A stretch of 32,000 nucleotides of DNA, taken from Methanopyrus kandleri AV19 (GTDB lineage: Archaea > JAADCQ01 > Methanopyri > Methanopyrales > Methanopyraceae). Under the pieces are notes generated by a model. The model saw nothing but the letters and a program-made list of their open reading frames with translations. It had not been told where the DNA came from and searched no databases. The stretch is from the NCBI RefSeq assembly GCF_000007185.1, contig NC_003551.1, positions 330,001 through 362,000 of the forward strand, read 5' to 3'. Below, one piece after another: positions 3,753 through 31,065 of the stretch; positions within the stretch are counted from its first letter, which is position 1; each line of letters opens with the position of its first letter. Both the position numbers and the translations under genes were made by a program.

Positions 3753-3998
3753 ATGGCCGAGCAGAAGCCGTACTACGGAGCCTGGCCGTGTCACCCACGA
3801 GATCTAGTCGAGGAGGGAGTGACCACCAGCGCCCGGCGGGCGAGAATAGTCCTCAGGAAGTACGTCCTGGGACAGAGTGAGGAGGAAATAGCCGAGGAAG
3901 AGGACATCTCACTGAAGTCCGTGAAGTACCACCTAGAGAAGGCCGAGGAGGAAGGCCTCATCGATTACGTGAAGGAGAAGTTCGTGGAGAGCGAGTGA
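3753..3998 (+). CDS. Small HTH protein (sigma-70 region 4 / LuxR / Tfx-like helix-turn-helix)
   Basis: The 81-aa protein contains RARIVLRKYVLGQSEEEIAEEEDISLKSVKYHLEKA, which resembles a LuxR/Tfx N-terminal HTH. It starts 14 nt after the endA stop. Confidence 0.6.
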   Translation: MAEQKPYYGAWPCHPRDLVEEGVTTSARRARIVLRKYVLGQSEEEIAEEEDISLKSVKYHLEKAEEEGLIDYVKEKFVESE

Positions 3999-4014
3999 GC
4001 GGGTGTGAACTCCT

Positions 4015-5151
4015 ATACCCGAAACCCTGATCGATCCCTGGGACGTAGAAGAAGTCGATTACGAACGCCTTACCGAGGAGTTCGGCATTCGACCGATCGA
4101 CGAGAAAGTCCGAGAGTTACTACCACGGCGTTTCCCACTGCTAGACCGTGGCATAGTCTTCGGGCACCGCGATTACGACTCCTTCCTCAAAGATTACAAC
4201 GACGGCAAACTCGTCAGCGTCCTCAGCGGAATGATGCCCAGCGGCCGAATGCACCTCGGCCACAAGACGGTCGTCGATCAACTAGTGTTTTACCAGCAGG
4301 AGATGGACGTCAAGGTGTACGTTCCCATCGCCGACCTGGAGGCACACCATGCCCGGAACATGGACCTAGATCGGGCACACAGGATCGCCGTCGAAGAGTA
4401 CGTCCTCAACTACGCCGCGTTGGGTCTCGACCTGGACCCGGATCGATGTGAGATCTACCTCCAATCCGAGAGGAAGACGGTCCAGCGGATGGCACTGTTG
4501 CTAGCGGGCCGACTCACGTGGAACACCGTGAAAAACACGTACGGGTTCACCGGCGAGACCAACATGGGCCACGCTTTCGCGCCGATCGTCCAAGCCGCCG
4601 ATATACTACACCCACAGGAGATCGAGGGACCACACCGGGTTCTCGTACCCGTAGGCGTCGATCAGGACCCTCACCTCCGGTTGACTCGGGATATAGCGGA
4701 AAAGGAGGATCTGATCAAGCCGGCCAGCACGTACCACAGGTTCATGACCGGACTGACGGGAGGCAAAATGTCCAGTAGTAAACCCAACACCGCGATATTC
4801 CTCACCGACGATCCCGAGACGGCGAAAGAAAAGGTGTGGAACGCGAAGACCGGTGGAGGAGCGACGCTCGAGGAACATCGCGAGCACGGTGGCAACCCCG
4901 ACGAGTGCGTGGTGTACGAACTCATGGTGTACCATCTGGCCGACCGTATCGGAGGGGACGAAAAGCTACGGGAGATCCGGAAGAAGTGTCGGGAAGGGGA
5001 CATCATCTGCGGTGAGTGCAAACGGATGGTAGGAGAGGCGCTAGCGGAGATACTGGAAGAACTGGAGCGTCGCCGTGAAGACGTTCGAGACGAGCTCCCG
5101 GACCTACTATCACAGCACCCGGACGCGCCCGAAGTACCGGAGGACTGGTAG
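4015..5151 (+). CDS. trpS: Tryptophanyl-tRNA synthetase (archaeal/eukaryal type); start codon unresolved
   Basis: The HIGH motif (PSGRMHLGH) and KMSKS motif (GKMSSSKP) are present. The upstream in-frame stretch IDPWDVEEVDYERLTEEFGIRPI...FGHRDYDSFL is typical of archaeal TrpRS. The frame is open from 4009, after TGA 4006-4008, but the first ATG/GTG/TTG is at 4231. ATA 4015 is used here only as a placeholder. Confidence 0.9.
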   Translation: MPETLIDPWDVEEVDYERLTEEFGIRPIDEKVRELLPRRFPLLDRGIVFGHRDYDSFLKDYNDGKLVSVLSGMMPSGRMHLGHKTVVDQLVFYQQEMDVKVYVPIADLEAHHARNMDLDRAHRIAVEEYVLNYAALGLDLDPDRCEIYLQSERKTVQRMALLLAGRLTWNTVKNTYGFTGETNMGHAFAPIVQAADILHPQEIEGPHRVLVPVGVDQDPHLRLTRDIAEKEDLIKPASTYHRFMTGLTGGKMSSSKPNTAIFLTDDPETAKEKVWNAKTGGGATLEEHREHGGNPDECVVYELMVYHLADRIGGDEKLREIRKKCREGDIICGECKRMVGEALAEILEELERRREDVRDELPDLLSQHPDAPEVPEDW

Positions 5152-5152
5152 G

Positions 5153-6226
5153 ATGATTCCACCGTTCCAAGCTTTAGTAACGTGTCCCGCCGGGTTCGAA
5201 TTCCGTTGTGTCGAAGAGCTCGAGGATATACTCAAAGAGCAGGACCCGTACGCGGAGGCGGAACCTACGTACTTCAAAGGCGTCGTAGTGGTGCGATCGG
5301 ATCTAGAACCGGAAGAGATCGTCGAAATGATGAAAGATGCGGACACGGATTGGGTAGCTAAGATCGTCCCCATCCACCGAACCGTACGCGCCGACCTGGA
5401 CGTGATGAAACGCACGGCCACGATCCTAGCGCGACGGAAGCTGGACGAAAACACGTCGTTCGCAGTACGATGCCGAAAGCGGGGCCAACCACCGTTCGGA
5501 CAGCGAGAGGTCGAGGTGGAGGTAGGTGCGGCGGTACAGGAGGCGACCGGCGCCCCCGTGGACTTGGAGAATCCCGACTACTACGTCTGGATCGAGGTAC
5601 TACAGGATACCGCCGGGATCTCAGTGGTCCCTCCGGATCTCATCGTCAGCAAAGAAGTCAAGCGAGTACGCAAATGGAGTCCCGGGATGAGACCTATCTC
5701 CAGAGCTCAGCTCAAACTCAGGGAGCTACTGAAGCGCCATCCGTACATCGTACGGGAAGGTTCCGACGTGATCGACCTCGGGGCCGCACCGGGTGGTTGG
5801 AGCTACGAACTGGCGAGAAGAGTAGAGCCAGGGACAGTATACGCCGTAGATCCGGGGGACTTACACCCGAAGGTTCTCAAGCTCGACAACGTCGTACACC
5901 TCAAGAAAAGGGCCGAAGAGCTAACCGAGGACGACATCGAGGGTCGTATCAGGTTGGTCACGAGCGATCTCAACAGGATCCACACCGAAGCCACGGAGGT
6001 CACTCTCAGCGTCGCGGACGAATTCCTCGAGCCTGGGGGATTCATAGTACAGACGGTGAAGCTGGCCGTTGACCCGTCTACCGGGGAATACGCCGCGCCG
6101 GACGTGGAGACGGCGGTCTCAGAAGTCGAACTCGAATATGAGCGCCGCGGGTACGAGATACTGGCTATCGAGCGCTTGAAACGGAATACACCCAACGAGC
6201 GGACTCTAGTAGCTCGGAAGGTGTGA
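5153..6226 (+). CDS. THUMP domain fused to an FtsJ/RrmJ-type RNA 2'-O-ribose methyltransferase (RlmM-like architecture)
   Basis: The start is ATG 5153, 1 nt after the trpS stop; the track ORF start at 5075 overlaps trpS. The N-terminal half has a THUMP-like pattern (FAVRCRKRG...VDLENPDYYVWIEV). The C-terminal half has SRAQLKLREL, DLGAAPGGWSY, TSDLN and VKL (FtsJ motif I and K-D-K-E elements). Confidence 0.85.
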   Translation: MIPPFQALVTCPAGFEFRCVEELEDILKEQDPYAEAEPTYFKGVVVVRSDLEPEEIVEMMKDADTDWVAKIVPIHRTVRADLDVMKRTATILARRKLDENTSFAVRCRKRGQPPFGQREVEVEVGAAVQEATGAPVDLENPDYYVWIEVLQDTAGISVVPPDLIVSKEVKRVRKWSPGMRPISRAQLKLRELLKRHPYIVREGSDVIDLGAAPGGWSYELARRVEPGTVYAVDPGDLHPKVLKLDNVVHLKKRAEELTEDDIEGRIRLVTSDLNRIHTEATEVTLSVADEFLEPGGFIVQTVKLAVDPSTGEYAAPDVETAVSEVELEYERRGYEILAIERLKRNTPNERTLVARKV

Positions 6227-6445
6227 TCAGCGTTCCGGCCGCTGTTTCGAAGGATCTCACGGCGTGACAGCTCCGTAGCGACAGCCTCGAGAAGTTGGGC
6301 CCGCGAGGCCTGACTCCCGCTCGACCCGAGCGTCATCGTCCTGTACTCTCCTATCTGCCCTTAATTCCTAGTTATCCGGTCGGCGTCGTGAGTCGGGGAC
6401 TGATCGGATTCGACTCCGCTTGAAGTCGCCGGTGACACGGGGGTC

Positions 6446-6976
6446 ATGCGCCTGCTGAAAGCCGGTGACAGGATCCAAGGGCCTGGATGGGAGGGAAAGG
6501 TCACGGCAGTGTTGGACGTGGACGGATGTCGGGTAGTGATCACGAGCTCGAACCCCGAGAACGTGCCGAAGCGCGTCCGAGGTGGCGGAACCGTCTGTGA
6601 GCTCGCGTTCCATGACCCCGTCGGTGGGTTCGCGGCATACTGGGTGGAACCGGATCACTCGGAGGCAACCGATGTAGGATCACCGGAAGAGGGAACGTGT
6701 GCCGTTCATATCGGGAACAGGTGGATACTAGCCGAGGTGTTGGAGGTAGGTCGACGAGAATTGAGCATCAGAATCCCGAACGTGGCGATCCCCGGACCTG
6801 GCGACGCAGGCGCCCCGGTAGCGCAAAACGAGCGGGTAGTGGGCATGCTCTACATGTACTTCCTGGAGGACGATTGCGTGGGTCGCGCTGTCCGGATGGA
6901 CGTGATCGAAGAGCGAACCGAGCGAGCTCTGAAGCGCCTGAGGGGGCGTCAACGTGCCCGTAGTATTCGACCTTGA
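6446..6976 (+). CDS. Hypothetical protein
   Basis: This 176-aa ORF has GGTGA 9 nt upstream of its ATG, and its end overlaps the next gene. I recognise no family, and the composition is only moderately protein-like. Confidence 0.45.
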   Translation: MRLLKAGDRIQGPGWEGKVTAVLDVDGCRVVITSSNPENVPKRVRGGGTVCELAFHDPVGGFAAYWVEPDHSEATDVGSPEEGTCAVHIGNRWILAEVLEVGRRELSIRIPNVAIPGPGDAGAPVAQNERVVGMLYMYFLEDDCVGRAVRMDVIEERTERALKRLRGRQRARSIRP

Positions 6977-26997: not shown

Positions 26998-28272
26998 TTG
27001 GTCGTAGTTAAGGAGGGTGAGTACGCTATTCGGGACCCCTCCCTGGCTCCGAAAGGTCGAGACATGATTGAGTGGGCTCGGGACCACATGCCGGTATTAG
27101 GGGCCATCCGTGAGCGGTTCGAAGAAGAACGGCCGCTCGAAGGTATAACCGTGGGAATGACCCTGCATCTCGAGGCCAAGACGGCCGTTCTGGTCGAAAC
27201 GCTGATGGCCGGTGGCGCCGAGGTAGCCATCACCGGATGCAATCCACTTTCGACGAAAGATGAAGTTGCGGCGGCACTCGTGGAGGAAGGAGTGCACGTA
27301 TACGCCTGGCGCGGGGAGACGGAGGAAGAGTACTACCAGAACATCGACCGGGTGCTCTCCCACGAGCCCGACATCATAGTCGACGACGGTGCCGACTGTA
27401 TCGCGCGCGTGCACACCGAGTTCCCGGACCTAGCGGAGCGCGTGATCGGGGCCACCGAGGAGACCACGACGGGCGTTAACAGACTGCACGCGATGCACAG
27501 GGAGGGCGTCCTGAAGTTCCCGGTCATCGCCGTGAACGACGCTAAGACGAAATACCTCATGGACAACCGTTACGGGACCGGACAGAGCGCGCTGGACGGA
27601 TTGATGCGGGCCACCAACATCCTCCTAGCGGGCAAGACCGTAGTGGTAGTCGGGTACGGGTGGTGCGGTCGCGGCATTGCACGTCGAGCGCGGGGCTTGG
27701 GCGCCAACGTCATAGTAGTGGAGGTAGACCCGATCAAGGCCATGGAGGCTATCTTCGACGGATTCCGAGTGATGCCGATGGACCGCGCCGCCGAGGAAGG
27801 TGACATCTTCATCACCGCTACCGGGAATCGGGATGTGATCCGTGGCGAACACATCGAAAAGATGAAGGACGGCGTCATTTTAGCCAACGCGGGTCACTTC
27901 GACGTGGAGATCGACAAGGAGTATCTCGAGGAACATTGCGAGGAAAAGATCGACCGCAGGGGTGGCCTGGTCACCGAATACCGGATGCCAGACGGTAAGA
28001 GGGTCTACCTGATCGCAGAGGGGAGACTAGTGAACCTGGCGGCCGGCGAGGGACACCCTATTGAGATCATGGACATCAGCTTCGCACTCCAAGCGCTTTC
28101 CGTCGAGGTGTTGGCGAAAGAAGGGAAGGAGATGGAACCCGGAGTGTACAAGGTACCGAAAGACGTTGACAAGCGCGTCGCTGAACTGAAGCTAGAATCC
28201 ATGGGGATCGAGTTGGAGGAACTGACACCGGAACAGCGCGAGTACATGAAGAGCTGGGAAGAAGGTACATAG
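26998..28272 (+). CDS. ahcY: S-adenosyl-L-homocysteine hydrolase family (in methanogens possibly S-inosyl-L-homocysteine hydrolase)
   Basis: [32 protein letters not shown] and the NAD site [12 protein letters not shown] are all present. The start is TTG. Confidence 0.95.
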
Positions 28273-28362
28273 CGTCGAGGATCGGGCTCCGAAAAGTTAT
28301 TTTGCCAGCAATTAACAGGACCTCTCGGCGCGCGCCTTTTCAACCGAATAACGGGAGGGAAC

Positions 28363-28678
28363 GTGATGAAACTAGACGATGTCGTCAAGGAGCACGGCGT
28401 TCTCTGTGCGTTTGTTGCCACCGAGGATGGGTTCGTGGTCGACGCGGCATCCGACACCGACATAGATCCCGAGGAGAGTGCGGCTCTGGCGGCTGACCGC
28501 CGTTATGAGACTCCGAAACGTGATGAGCAGACTGGTTTTGGCGCTGAAAGAGGTCGAAGGTGGGATCATCGTCGGACTGTTGTACGATAGCAACTAGATC
28601 CCTACTGGAGCCGTCAAGTTAATTCTTCAGGAGCTTGAGGAGGAGTACAGGGGGAGAAGCGTCGAGGAGTTGCTTTGA
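28363..28678 (+). pseudogene. Roadblock/LC7 (MglB-like) domain gene interrupted by a +1 frame change and an in-frame TAG
   Basis: Frame 1 gives MMKLDDVVKEHGVLCAFVATEDGFVVDAASDTDIDPEESAALAA. The domain continues in the next frame from about 28493 (LTAVMRLRNVMSRLVLALKEVEGGIIVGLLYDSN). A TAG at 28595-28597 follows, and then 26 more sensible codons (IPTGAVKLILQELEEEYRGRSVEELL) run to TGA 28676-28678. Confidence 0.6.
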
Positions 28679-28699
28679 GGGCCACCACCGGGGGCGTAA

Positions 28700-29122
28700 G
28701 TGGTGGCTATCGAGATCGAAGACGTGAACGAGGTCCTACTAGCTGCATCGCTGTCAGCGCTTAAAGAGCTCGGTGAAACTCCTCATACGATCGCACTAGT
28801 CGTGAGGAGTCTGCTCGAAGACGGAGTGGAGGAGATCCCTAAGGGGTTCCTGGACGAGCTTAGGGAGGCATTGCACTCCCCTCCTGGATCCGTACAGTCG
28901 CGGAAAGGTACGAGGTACGAAATAGGTAATGAGGACGGGAATATCACCATTCGAATCGAAAGCTGTAGCTGGAAATCTATTTGTGAACTTCAGGAAGAAA
29001 TGGGACAAAAAATCTGTCCTGTAGCAATCATTATCGATGCTATATCTGAAACATTACCTATTTATATCGAATTTAACAGCAGTTCAGACTGCGTAGTTGA
29101 AGCTAAGAGGGTGAGGACATGA
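28700..29122 (+). CDS. V4R-like (COG1719-type) small Cys-motif protein
   Basis: The C-terminal half ITIRIESCSWKSICELQEEMGQKICPVAIIIDAISETLPIYIEFNSSSDCVV fits the V4R pattern (xEC...C...C...G...C). The start is GTG. GC content drops sharply in mid-gene, at about 28900. Confidence 0.65.
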   Translation: MVAIEIEDVNEVLLAASLSALKELGETPHTIALVVRSLLEDGVEEIPKGFLDELREALHSPPGSVQSRKGTRYEIGNEDGNITIRIESCSWKSICELQEEMGQKICPVAIIIDAISETLPIYIEFNSSSDCVVEAKRVRT

Positions 29123-29355
29123 GTATTGCCAGTATCGAGCATACAATCGCGATAATGTCTACTCTTAATAAAGTAATTAAAGAGAATGACGGTTCAGTAA
29201 CACATTTCCACCTAAGTATTGTTTCGAGTAAAATAATGGAAACACAAACGGCCAAAAGACGGGTGGAACAAGTACTCGAAAACTGCAAAAAGGTGTCGAC
29301 ACTGCTGTTAAAAATGGCGAATCAAAGGTCGATATTGATGGATACATGTCGATAG
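29119..29355 (+). CDS. Hypothetical small helical protein (AT-rich gene)
   Basis: The 78-aa ORF overlaps the upstream stop in ATGA. A strong GAGGGTGAGG lies 3 nt upstream of its ATG. I recognise no family. Confidence 0.5.
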   Translation: MSIASIEHTIAIMSTLNKVIKENDGSVTHFHLSIVSSKIMETQTAKRRVEQVLENCKKVSTLLLKMANQRSILMDTCR

Positions 29356-29579
29356 AATTTCGATTAGAATTCGATGATGTTATATTATGTACAATAAATG
29401 AGTGCCCTTATAGGAGATGGTGTACTAAAATATTATCGATGGTAATAGAGGGAGAGGAACTAATGGTACTGCCATGTACAATCCTCATGGAGTGCTGCCT
29501 CCAGGACTCTCATGGGGGAGTGCATAAGGTCGAACCAGATGAGAACTCCTGCGAAATCGAGATCGTGCTCAGACACTGA
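29346..29579 (+). CDS. V4R-like mini-protein (77 aa, 7 Cys)
   Basis: VILCTINECPYRRWC...LPCTILMECC...NSCEIEIVL repeats the V4R Cys spacing. It overlaps the previous ORF by 10 nt and ends 1 nt before the methyltransferase start. Confidence 0.55.
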   Translation: MSIEFRLEFDDVILCTINECPYRRWCTKILSMVIEGEELMVLPCTILMECCLQDSHGGVHKVEPDENSCEIEIVLRH

Positions 29580-29580
29580 G

Positions 29581-30552
29581 GTGTTCCTACCCGAGATCGA
29601 CGATCGATGTCACGAGCTGGCGGAGCGCTACGGCGTTCGGCCTTACATGGTGGCCCGATATCTGACCTTCTTAGGACGGTCCGAAACCGAGAGACTTCTG
29701 AAACATATGGAGGACATCCGTCCGGCCATTCGGACGAATACTATCTTGATAGATCCTGAAGAACTTCGACGTGTCTTGGAAGAGAAGCGAGGATTCGAGC
29801 TGAAGCGCTGCCCCGAGCCCGTGGATGTGGGGTTTTGGATCCTCAACGACCCGCCTATCTCCATCGGCGCCACCTTGGAGTACATGATGGGGTACTACGT
29901 GCCCCAGGACGCCGCTTCCATGTTACCTCCGGTCGTACTGGACCCGAAACCTGGAGATCGAGTGCTCGACGCGTGTGCGGCCCCGGGTGGGAAGACCACC
30001 CACCTGGCCCAACTCATGGACAACGAAGGCACGTTGATAGCCATCGACGTGGACCCGGACCGCATGCGGGCGTTGAAGAGCAACCTAGCCAGATGCGGTG
30101 TCGCCAACGCGGTGGCCCTCCGTATGAACGCCCTCGACTTGCCGAGCACCGACTGGGAGTTCGATCGAATCCTTCTCGACGCGCCGTGCACCGGGGAGGG
30201 AACTATCCACAAAGACCCTTCTAGGAAGACTAGCCGCGATCCGGAGGACATCGCCACGTGTGCCAGGTTACAGCGCCGCTTGATAGACGCGGTCGTAGAT
30301 GTGTTGAGACCAGGCGGTGTGCTGGTCTACTCCACCTGCACATTCTCGCCCGAAGAGAACGAGCTGATAGTGCAATACGCCGTAGATGAACACGGACTGG
30401 AGCCGGAGCCCGTGGACGTGGGGTGGGCGGACAGGGGACTACGCGTGCCGGGGGTCGAGCCGAAGGTGCGACGGACGTGCGCCCGGCTGTATCCCCACAG
30501 ACACGGTATGGGGATCTTTTTCGTCGCTAGATTACGGAAGCCCCTCAGCTAA
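29581..30552 (+). CDS. NOP2/Sun (RsmB/Trm4) family RNA cytosine-C5 methyltransferase
   Basis: The SAM motif is VLDACAAPGGKT. The catalytic motifs are DRILLDAPCTGEG (motif IV, PC) and VYSTCTFSPEENE (motif VI, TC). I chose GTG 29581 as the start; ATG 29539 is also possible. Confidence 0.9.
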   Translation: MFLPEIDDRCHELAERYGVRPYMVARYLTFLGRSETERLLKHMEDIRPAIRTNTILIDPEELRRVLEEKRGFELKRCPEPVDVGFWILNDPPISIGATLEYMMGYYVPQDAASMLPPVVLDPKPGDRVLDACAAPGGKTTHLAQLMDNEGTLIAIDVDPDRMRALKSNLARCGVANAVALRMNALDLPSTDWEFDRILLDAPCTGEGTIHKDPSRKTSRDPEDIATCARLQRRLIDAVVDVLRPGGVLVYSTCTFSPEENELIVQYAVDEHGLEPEPVDVGWADRGLRVPGVEPKVRRTCARLYPHRHGMGIFFVARLRKPLS

Positions 30553-30612: not shown

Positions 30613-31065
30613 TTGGGAGCATTGGAGGAGTTCGAGTGGAAGCTCGCCGAACACGATGTTCCTATTCCCGTCCGTCAGGACGCTGTGGCGCTGTACCGTG
30701 TGTTACTGGAGACGGTTCGAATTTGGGGGATAGAGAGGGAGGAAGGCGTTCGGGAGAGTAGAAGCGAAGTCCGCGCACGGATCAGCTGTGAGGGACTCGA
30801 TTGCGCCGTCCTCACGAAGGTGGGTGAAGATCGGCCACAACTTCTCCTGAGAACTGTCTTGGGTCCGAGGTTGCTCGCGGAAGTGTTCGAGCGGGCACAC
30901 GAGAGCGGCGTCAGATCCTTCCACTTCGACCTTCAGGGGCGAGGATTGCGGGTAGAGGGCGAGTACGACGTGGGCATCGTTCAGATCAAGGTCGTCGGCG
31001 GGGGAGCGGGGTGGGAGCTGCTGGAGGATTTAGAGAAGAGGGGGTTCTCTGTAACTGGGTTATAG
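30613..31065 (+). CDS. Hypothetical protein
   Basis: This 150-aa ORF has a TTG start and a TATA-like CATTAATAGC about 40 nt upstream. I recognise no family. Confidence 0.55.
   Translation: MGALEEFEWKLAEHDVPIPVRQDAVALYRVLLETVRIWGIEREEGVRESRSEVRARISCEGLDCAVLTKVGEDRPQLLLRTVLGPRLLAEVFERAHESGVRSFHFDLQGRGLRVEGEYDVGIVQIKVVGGGAGWELLEDLEKRGFSVTGL

Follow-up and report, generated by a model that had tools for sequence, protein, structure and literature searches.

A partly broken Methanopyrus kandleri AV19 copy of an archaeal three-gene cassette encoding a Roadblock-like protein and two paralogous four-cysteine proteins

In a 32-kb stretch of Methanopyrus kandleri AV19 DNA (the window), positions 28363 to 29579 hold a partly broken copy of a three-gene cassette that is intact in related archaea. 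The cassette encodes a Roadblock-like protein (gene A) and two paralogous four-cysteine proteins (genes B and C). It is narrowly distributed and uncharacterised, and literature searches returned nothing specific on it in Methanopyrus. On balance, we lean slightly towards the explanation that its products would form a Roadblock-based regulatory complex with a metal-binding B-C heterodimer. The AV19 copy of the cassette is decaying. Coordinates are positions in the window, on the + strand unless said otherwise, and the genes concerned are the following.

28366-28678, + strand: gene A, Roadblock/LC7-like pseudogene (from DNA alignment with intact 119-aa orthologues and frame-corrected translation)
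28700-29122, + strand: gene B, the sole intact member, 140 aa (from orthologues, dN/dS and alignments)
29119-29579, + strand: gene C, 153 aa when its frame is corrected (from orthologues of 152-154 aa, alignments and corrected translation)
29581-30552, + strand: intact RsmB/F (NOL1/NOP2/Sun)-type RNA m5C methyltransferase (from PF01189)

Results

Gene structure of the cassette

The open reading frame (ORF) list of the window contains four ORFs in this region, at 28363-28590, 28700-29122, 29119-29355 and 29346-29579, all on the + strand. The initial annotation had described them as a tightly coupled, co-directional operon of small genes running up to the m5C methyltransferase, and this description is supported. 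The ancestral stop codon of gene A (TGA 28676-28678) lies 21 nt before the GTG at 28700, an ATGA overlap follows at 29119-29122 and a 10-nt overlap at 29346-29355, and a single nucleotide separates the last stop from the GTG at 29581 that starts the methyltransferase. The number of genes has to be revised from four to three. The ORFs at 29119-29355 and 29346-29579 are one gene, gene C, split by the loss of one base after 29282 (GAAAA-CTG). What had been taken for a separate 78-aa small helical protein is the N-terminus of the gene C product followed by 23 out-of-frame residues, and the supposed V4R-like mini-protein corresponds to the C-terminal half of that product, with an internal ATG as its start. 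Insertion of one base restores a 153-aa protein with all family motifs.

Eight Methanopyrus loci were fetched for comparison: L008 is from Methanopyrus sp. SNP6, L009, L012, L013 and L015 are contigs of metagenome-assembled genomes, L014 is a Logan assembly contig, and L010 and L011 are metagenome contigs. The small genes are conserved in these relatives. In six of the eight (L008, L009, L010, L011, L012 and L015) A, B and C lie intact between an S-adenosylhomocysteine (AdoHcy) hydrolase gene, which is also the upstream neighbour of the cassette in AV19, and the methyltransferase gene; in the same six, gene C is a single gene of 152-154 aa. The 1-nt spacing between the gene C stop and the methyltransferase start recurs in L008 and L015.

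The ratio of nonsynonymous to synonymous divergence (dN/dS) among intact orthologues is 0.03-0.08 for A, 0.10-0.16 for B and 0.08-0.09 for C, next to 0.02-0.08 for the flanking housekeeping genes. A stop-free run of 115 codons in a segment of 37-42% GC has a chance probability of 0.0075, and the 153 stop-free codons of the frame-corrected gene C have one of 0.0005. Because of these low ratios and improbable stop-free runs, A, B and C are real genes under purifying selection (dN/dS 0.03-0.16).

Lesions and repeated loss

The first gene had already been called broken, and alignment of the DNA with intact orthologues maps three lesions in it. From the ancestral start, ATG 28366, the reading frame is shifted by +1 through an extra base near 28494, lacks 48 nt (an in-frame deletion) between 28536 and 28537, and runs into TAG in place of GAG at 28595-28597. 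Intact A proteins in the other Methanopyrus loci have 119-120 aa. Pyrrolysine read-through of the TAG was considered and rejected, as every orthologue has GAG or GAA at this codon and two further lesions are present; Methanopyrus is not known to have a pyrrolysine system.

The lesions of A and C in AV19 look real, since the same broken products recur on other contigs, Logan assemblies included. The exact frameshifted 78-aa product is recorded from 11 Logan assembly contigs. The truncated A product (74 aa, P0014), identical to a record on the M. kandleri chromosome, is recorded from four contigs, from NCBI (second accession HII70476.1) and Logan. Other lineages carry knock-outs of their own. 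L013 (4014-4016) and L014 share one allele, a CAA-to-TAA change at codon 43 of gene C, which arose independently of the AV19 lesion, and L022 has an in-frame TAG within gene B at 4601-4603. From these independent knock-outs it follows that the cassette has been lost more than once and that the cultured type strain can do without it.

Distribution and gene neighbourhoods

When the B profile was run exhaustively with HMMER against 1.84 billion representative proteins, four matched: one from Methanopyrus, one repetitive false positive, and two proteins of 130 aa, P0017 and P0018 (E 9e-6 and 2e-4). The genes for the latter two sit between A-like and C-like genes on archaeal contigs of 62-71% GC, L016 and L017. 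A metagenome scan with the A profile added further A-B-C triads in L018, L022 and L024. Relatives were thus found only in Methanopyrus and a few uncultured high-GC archaea, and because the remote homologues of B sit in A-B-C triads too, the triad is a self-contained unit.

A further contig from the A-profile scan, L020, carries at 3953-6503 an A-like gene, then a 312-aa fusion of B and C (4354-5292), then a DRG-type GTPase gene (5337-6503). The GTPase, composed of MMR_HSR1, MMR_HSR1_Xtn and TGS domains, starts 45 nt downstream of the fusion, and no other direct linkage to a GTPase was seen. As a Rosetta-stone case, the fusion is evidence for joint function of B and C. Elsewhere, the genes flanking the triads belong mostly to information processing (exosome Csl4, RpoL, Pcc1, L37ae, YchF). 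The initial annotation was right that no GTPase is adjacent: none adjoins the cassette in the window or in the other Methanopyrus loci, and a YchF-like gene lies about 2.5 kb downstream in Methanopyrus.

Solitary A-like genes, with neither B nor C, turned up through the A profile in L019 and L021 (3962-4357), directly upstream of a SepSecS gene and 0.8 kb downstream of an EngB-like GTPase gene. As SepSecS adjoins the solitary A-like gene, these high-GC archaea appear to use selenocysteine, which Methanopyrus also uses.

The Roadblock-like protein

Gene A is probably, but not provenly, a divergent Roadblock protein. On four intact A proteins, Pfam PF03259 (Robl_LC7) is the only or best family, with E-values from 4.9e-4 to 2.4e-3; the A protein of L017 scores 19.4 bits, and the broken ORF of the window reaches only E 0.15. 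A search of the PDB with the A-family profile (alignment A5) gave six matches, five of which are MglB, Robl_LC7 or LAMTOR2-like chains, none individually significant. These are the MglB chains 6h5b_B, 6izw_B and 6hjm_A (query positions 6-109, E 0.16-0.26), the Robl_LC7 chain 7f8f_A (6-84, E 0.56) and the LAMTOR2-like 9y6s (E 1.1). The Roadblock/LC7 assignment of the first gene is therefore supported as probable, PF03259 being the sole or best family of the intact orthologues at scores below the Pfam cut-off.

The two four-cysteine proteins

B and C are paralogues. Aligned by hhalign with the remote homologues added, the two families match over 115 columns with 92% probability and an E-value of 5.7e-7, and their profiles cross-match in HMM searches. 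Gene B, which from an alternative start at GTG 28703 encodes 139 aa, has orthologues of 139-140 aa that are 74-96% identical. Its four conserved cysteines are spaced C89-X5-C95-X10-C106-X24-C131, and those of gene C C96-X5-C102-X17-C120-X24-C145, so that both share the pattern CX5C...C...X24-C.

The predicted order of elements in B (AlphaFold2, low confidence) is three helices, a beta hairpin, two helices and a second beta hairpin, and that of C is similar. The first hairpin ends in E-x-C-P-[WY]-x3-C in both proteins, the fifth helix starts with CP or PC, and the fourth cysteine, 24 residues past the third, starts the second strand of the last hairpin. Each cysteine site would fall at the end of one element, namely strand 2, helix 4, helix 5 or strand 4; the four are conserved in B and mostly in C. 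Cysteines placed in this way would be suited to holding a structural metal.

No family in Pfam, NCBIfam, PADLOC, PHROGs or the PDB could be assigned to B or C, whether the ORFs of the window or the intact orthologues were searched. Profile searches of the PDB with five B and/or C alignments (A2, A3, A6, A7 and A8) gave noise only, designed proteins and uL10, with no V4R or TRAPP chain. Weak HU/IHF-like matches were seen on residues ~41-85 of C (29239-29373 after correction), corresponding to the long third helix and first hairpin: Pfam Bac_DNA_binding at E 0.16-0.17 on P0008 and P0010, HU-CCDC81_bac_2 at E 0.14 on the C protein of L017, and phrog_379 ('DNA binding protein') at E 0.0038 on residues 44-82, the only PHROGs match of the cassette. 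They probably reflect local similarity of secondary structure.

Between AV19 and L010, gene B (28703-29119) shows very few differences, with a dN/dS of ~0.6 (dS 0.021, dN 0.013), against 0.10-0.16 for more divergent pairs. The raised ratio could indicate relaxed selection after the loss of A and C, with counts too small to tell.

Neighbouring genes and sequence features

The methyltransferase matches PF01189 at E 2.9e-59 over profile positions 2-199 of 199, and its dN/dS is 0.04-0.08. Sixty nucleotides downstream of it lies a 150-aa ORF (30613-31065) without a match in Pfam, NCBIfam, PADLOC or PHROGs. A gene of 149-150 aa is found there in most of the fetched Methanopyrus loci, L008 excepted, and it may belong to the same transcript as the cassette. 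Three further features of the DNA itself are listed below.

28291-28316, + strand: AT-rich motif (GAAAAGTTATTTTG...AATTAAC), candidate BRE/TATA promoter, 50-75 nt upstream of gene A (from sequence)
28681-28707, + strand: 8-bp inverted repeat, GCCACCAC (28681-28688) and GTGGTGGC (28700-28707), with an 11-nt loop, overlapping the GTG start of gene B
28800-29450, no strand: AT-rich island, the lowest-GC stretch of the 32-kb window (GC 0.35-0.42 against a mean of 0.59, standard deviation 0.04)

L010 and L013 have the AT-rich motif almost without change, L008, L009 and L012 retain most of it, and in L015 it has diverged; the motif is a candidate for the promoter of the operon. A ribosome-binding site, GGGAGGG, is present at 28353-28359. 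A sigma-70 and terminator scan stayed at background level, with models that are not applicable to archaea.

The initial annotation had pointed to a 7-bp inverted repeat that could sequester the start of gene B. The repeat exists and extends to 8 bp. The regulatory hairpin was rejected: seven such 8-bp repeats occur in the window where 9.8 are expected by chance, the fold has a z-score of -1.7, with 14 of 200 shuffles as good (not significant), and the corresponding regions of L008, L009 and L010, in which at most partial pairing is left, fold no better than shuffles. An Rfam search of 28000-30000 found no RNA family.

The AT-rich island begins at about codon 70 of gene B and spans most of gene C, with a GC content at third codon positions (GC3) of 0.33-0.47 against 0.73-0.74 in the flanking genes. 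The drop in GC is present to varying degree in all Methanopyrus lineages, despite saturated synonymous divergence, and absent from the homologous triads of L016 and L017 (GC 0.60-0.70). No low-GC donor came to light. Within the island, a 168-nt patch of gene C (29283-29450) that opens right at the frameshift of AV19 has 80% identity to L010, the closest relative, against 98% on either side. No other part of C varies as much in any of the pairwise comparisons, which suggests allelic recombination or a hypervariable segment.

Discussion

A proposed Roadblock-based regulatory complex

We propose, with slight preference over the alternatives weighed below, that the cassette encodes a small regulatory complex. 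Transcription would probably start from the candidate promoter near 28300 and take in the cassette together with the RNA m5C methyltransferase. The A protein is predicted to form a Roadblock dimer. B and C would form a heterodimer, as their fusion into one 312-aa protein in L020 suggests, and their four cysteines would hold a structural metal, most likely zinc, joining the last two helices to the sheet. Roadblock dimers serve as platforms for GTPases (PMC10933270), and the A dimer with B-C may be a small platform of this GTPase-controlling kind. The best candidate for a partner would be an Obg-like GTPase that associates with ribosomes, of the DRG or YchF type. The AV19 module would be non-functional and hence dispensable in culture.

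Among the nearest described systems are the MglB-type Roadblock/LC7 proteins of small archaeal operons with GTPases. Gene A resembles them in size, in its sub-threshold PF03259 score, in alignments that cover most of the MglB/Robl_LC7 domain, and in leading a tightly coupled operon of small proteins, which in the lineage of L020 has a GTPase gene directly downstream. The cassette differs in that no Ras-like or MglA-type GTPase adjoins it, those nearby being of DRG, YchF or EngB types, in that the partners of gene A are two cysteine-rich paralogues matching no described family, and in that the copy in the window is a pseudogene.

Several observations weigh against this explanation. Intact A proteins score 18-20 bits where the curated cut-off of PF03259 is 23. 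A GTPase is seen to adjoin the triad on one contig only, L020. MglB typically has small Ras-like partners, a kind to which the nearby GTPases do not belong, and the flanking genes vary by lineage. The proposed metal site is not uniformly kept, with serine at the third cysteine site in the C protein of L017 and L018, and with one cysteine lost in the first half of the L020 fusion and two in the second. The structural models are of limited use: the AlphaFold2 model of B has a pLDDT of 44 (unusable) and that of C a pLDDT of 66 and a pTM of 0.62 (moderate), and Foldseek found no significant match to a solved fold for either. Finally, the cassette is not essential, because two of its three genes are dead in AV19 and the methyltransferase is intact.

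B and C as possible divergent V4R/Bet3 proteins

Roadblock, V4R and GTPase genes form a known association in archaea. The initial annotation had assigned V4R-type cysteine spacing to B and to the mini-protein that is now part of C, a claim that is left without profile support. Neither V4R (PF02830) nor TRAPP_Bet3 (PF04051) matched at E ≤ 10 in about 17 scanned family members (among them B of the window, the two halves of C, P0004, P0005, P0007, P0008, P0010, P0015, P0017, P0018, and the C proteins of L016 and L017), and the L020 fusion matched neither at E ≤ 0.01. The profile comparison with V4R and Robl_LC7 that had been suggested therefore yields nothing for V4R and a sub-threshold match on intact A for Robl_LC7. 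Since no V4R profile matches, V4R membership cannot be claimed.

It is possible that B and C are nevertheless extremely divergent members of the V4R/Bet3 (TRAPPC3) fold, and that the cassette is a Roadblock and V4R module for sensing small molecules; we hold this to be a serious alternative, short of an even chance. V4R/Bet3 proteins consist of five helices on a four-stranded antiparallel sheet and act as homo- or heterodimers, and glycine pairs three residues apart (GxxxG) in helices 2 and 5 mark the family (Podar et al., PMC2253512). The predicted element order of B, with five helices and four main strands, agrees with this description, and that of C is similar, although the models are weak. 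The paralogy of B and C and their fusion in L020 would fit a dimeric family, and the Roadblock neighbour would fit as well. In Thor-TRAPPC3 and PoxR, a Cys4 zinc site ties the sheet to a helix, with ligand positions that vary (Tran et al., PMC10933270), and the four conserved cysteines of B and C are likewise predicted at strand and helix ends. Among the top 50 Foldseek matches of the B model are three Bet3-family chains (7e2c_G, 7e93_G and 2cfh_C), but at E-values of 0.7-1.5.

Other results stand against this relationship. The GxxxG pairs are absent from B and C (alignments A6, A7 and A8), where the sequence of the last helix is CPVAIIIDA in B and PCTILMECC in C. With human TRAPPC3, whose sequence was confirmed against the PDB, hhalign gave no signal for the profiles of B and C, and the PDB searches described above retrieved no relevant chain. 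The better of the two models, that of C, had no Bet3 or V4R protein among its top Foldseek matches. The cysteines of PoxR are spaced C...ExxC-X7-C, which differs from the CX5C...C-X24-C of B and C. To obtain a V4R comparator, 260 kb of archaeal DNA were also searched by regular expression for the V4R-like motif ExxC..G..C, which did not occur there. In comparison with MJ1460 (2OSO), PoxR (5FS0) and Thor-TRAPPC3, then, B and C are alike in length (~140-150 aa), in a predicted element order that fits five helices and a four-stranded sheet, in four potential zinc-binding cysteines, in occurring as paralogous pairs and in their association with Roadblock proteins, and unlike in profile and structural matches, GxxxG pairs and cysteine spacing. 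A fold-level resemblance of B and C to V4R/Bet3 is put forward here tentatively, from the predicted element order, the cysteines, the paralogue pairing and the Roadblock neighbour. The more specific proposal, that they represent a new, extremely divergent Bet3/V4R branch forming a zinc-tethered heterodimer in an operon with a Roadblock protein, is slightly more doubtful.

A possible role as accessory subunits of the methyltransferase

B and C, with or without A, might instead be archease-like accessory or chaperone subunits of the NOL1/NOP2/Sun m5C methyltransferase. Archease provides, for archaeal Trm4, the precedent of a small accessory protein encoded beside an m5C methyltransferase, and the cassette resembles it in that genes for small proteins directly precede an RsmB/F-family gene and are translationally coupled to it. 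Gene C ends 1 nt before the methyltransferase start or overlaps it in all Methanopyrus lineages, the AdoHcy hydrolase gene lies directly upstream, and the L017 triad is preceded by a DUF531 gene with weak similarity to SPOUT RNA methylases (E 0.12). However, the linkage is limited to Methanopyrus, the triad being away from any RsmB/F gene in L016, L017, L018, L020 and L022. The AV19 methyltransferase has outlived A and C, remaining intact and under strong purifying selection, and the Pfam scans gave no match to archease (PF01951). This makes an accessory role improbable.

An acquired conflict island or sequencing errors as improbable explanations

Still less probably, the cassette is a fast-evolving island with a conflict or accessory function, for instance in defence or addiction, that came in by horizontal transfer and is lost time and again. 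It holds the most AT-rich segment of the window, it was knocked out independently in AV19 (A and C), in L013/L014 (C) and in L022 (B), the 168-nt patch of C diverges sharply from L010 between well-conserved flanks, and the distribution is very narrow. But PADLOC matches none of A, B and C, and PHROGs adds only the weak HU-like match. The cassette is syntenic in all Methanopyrus lineages within a housekeeping neighbourhood, its dN/dS is low, and its homologues in other archaea have host-like GC. The ORF list shows no integrase, repeats or tRNA at the borders, and no RNA family was found at 28000-30000.

It is scarcely credible that A and C are really intact in AV19 and look disrupted through mistakes in the sequencing or assembly of the 2002 genome: the gene C lesion, a single base beside an A run, is of a classic error type, but gene A has three independent lesions, one of them a 48-nt deletion, and both broken products recur on the contigs listed above.

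Conclusions

The annotation of AV19 is corrected in two respects. One hypothetical ORF and one unannotated ORF together make up a single gene with a frameshift, and what is annotated as a 74-aa 'roadblock' protein is a fragment encoded by a pseudogene. The cultured type strain and the L013 lineage carry natural loss-of-function alleles of the cassette, and Methanopyrus sp. SNP6 has it intact for comparison.

The cassette offers a compact three-protein case in which the fusion points to a B-C heterodimer and one lineage ties the genes to a DRG GTPase. Eukaryotic regulators of trafficking have their prokaryotic raw material in Roadblock proteins, V4R/Bet3 proteins and GTPases. If B and C are not Bet3-like, the cassette would merely be a lineage-specific orphan of modest interest. 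If they are, it would be a minimal prokaryotic counterpart of the GTPase-regulating platforms built from Roadblock and Bet3 proteins, following the logic of TRAPP and Ragulator, and would place such platforms in Methanopyri-related methanogens, far outside the Asgard archaea.

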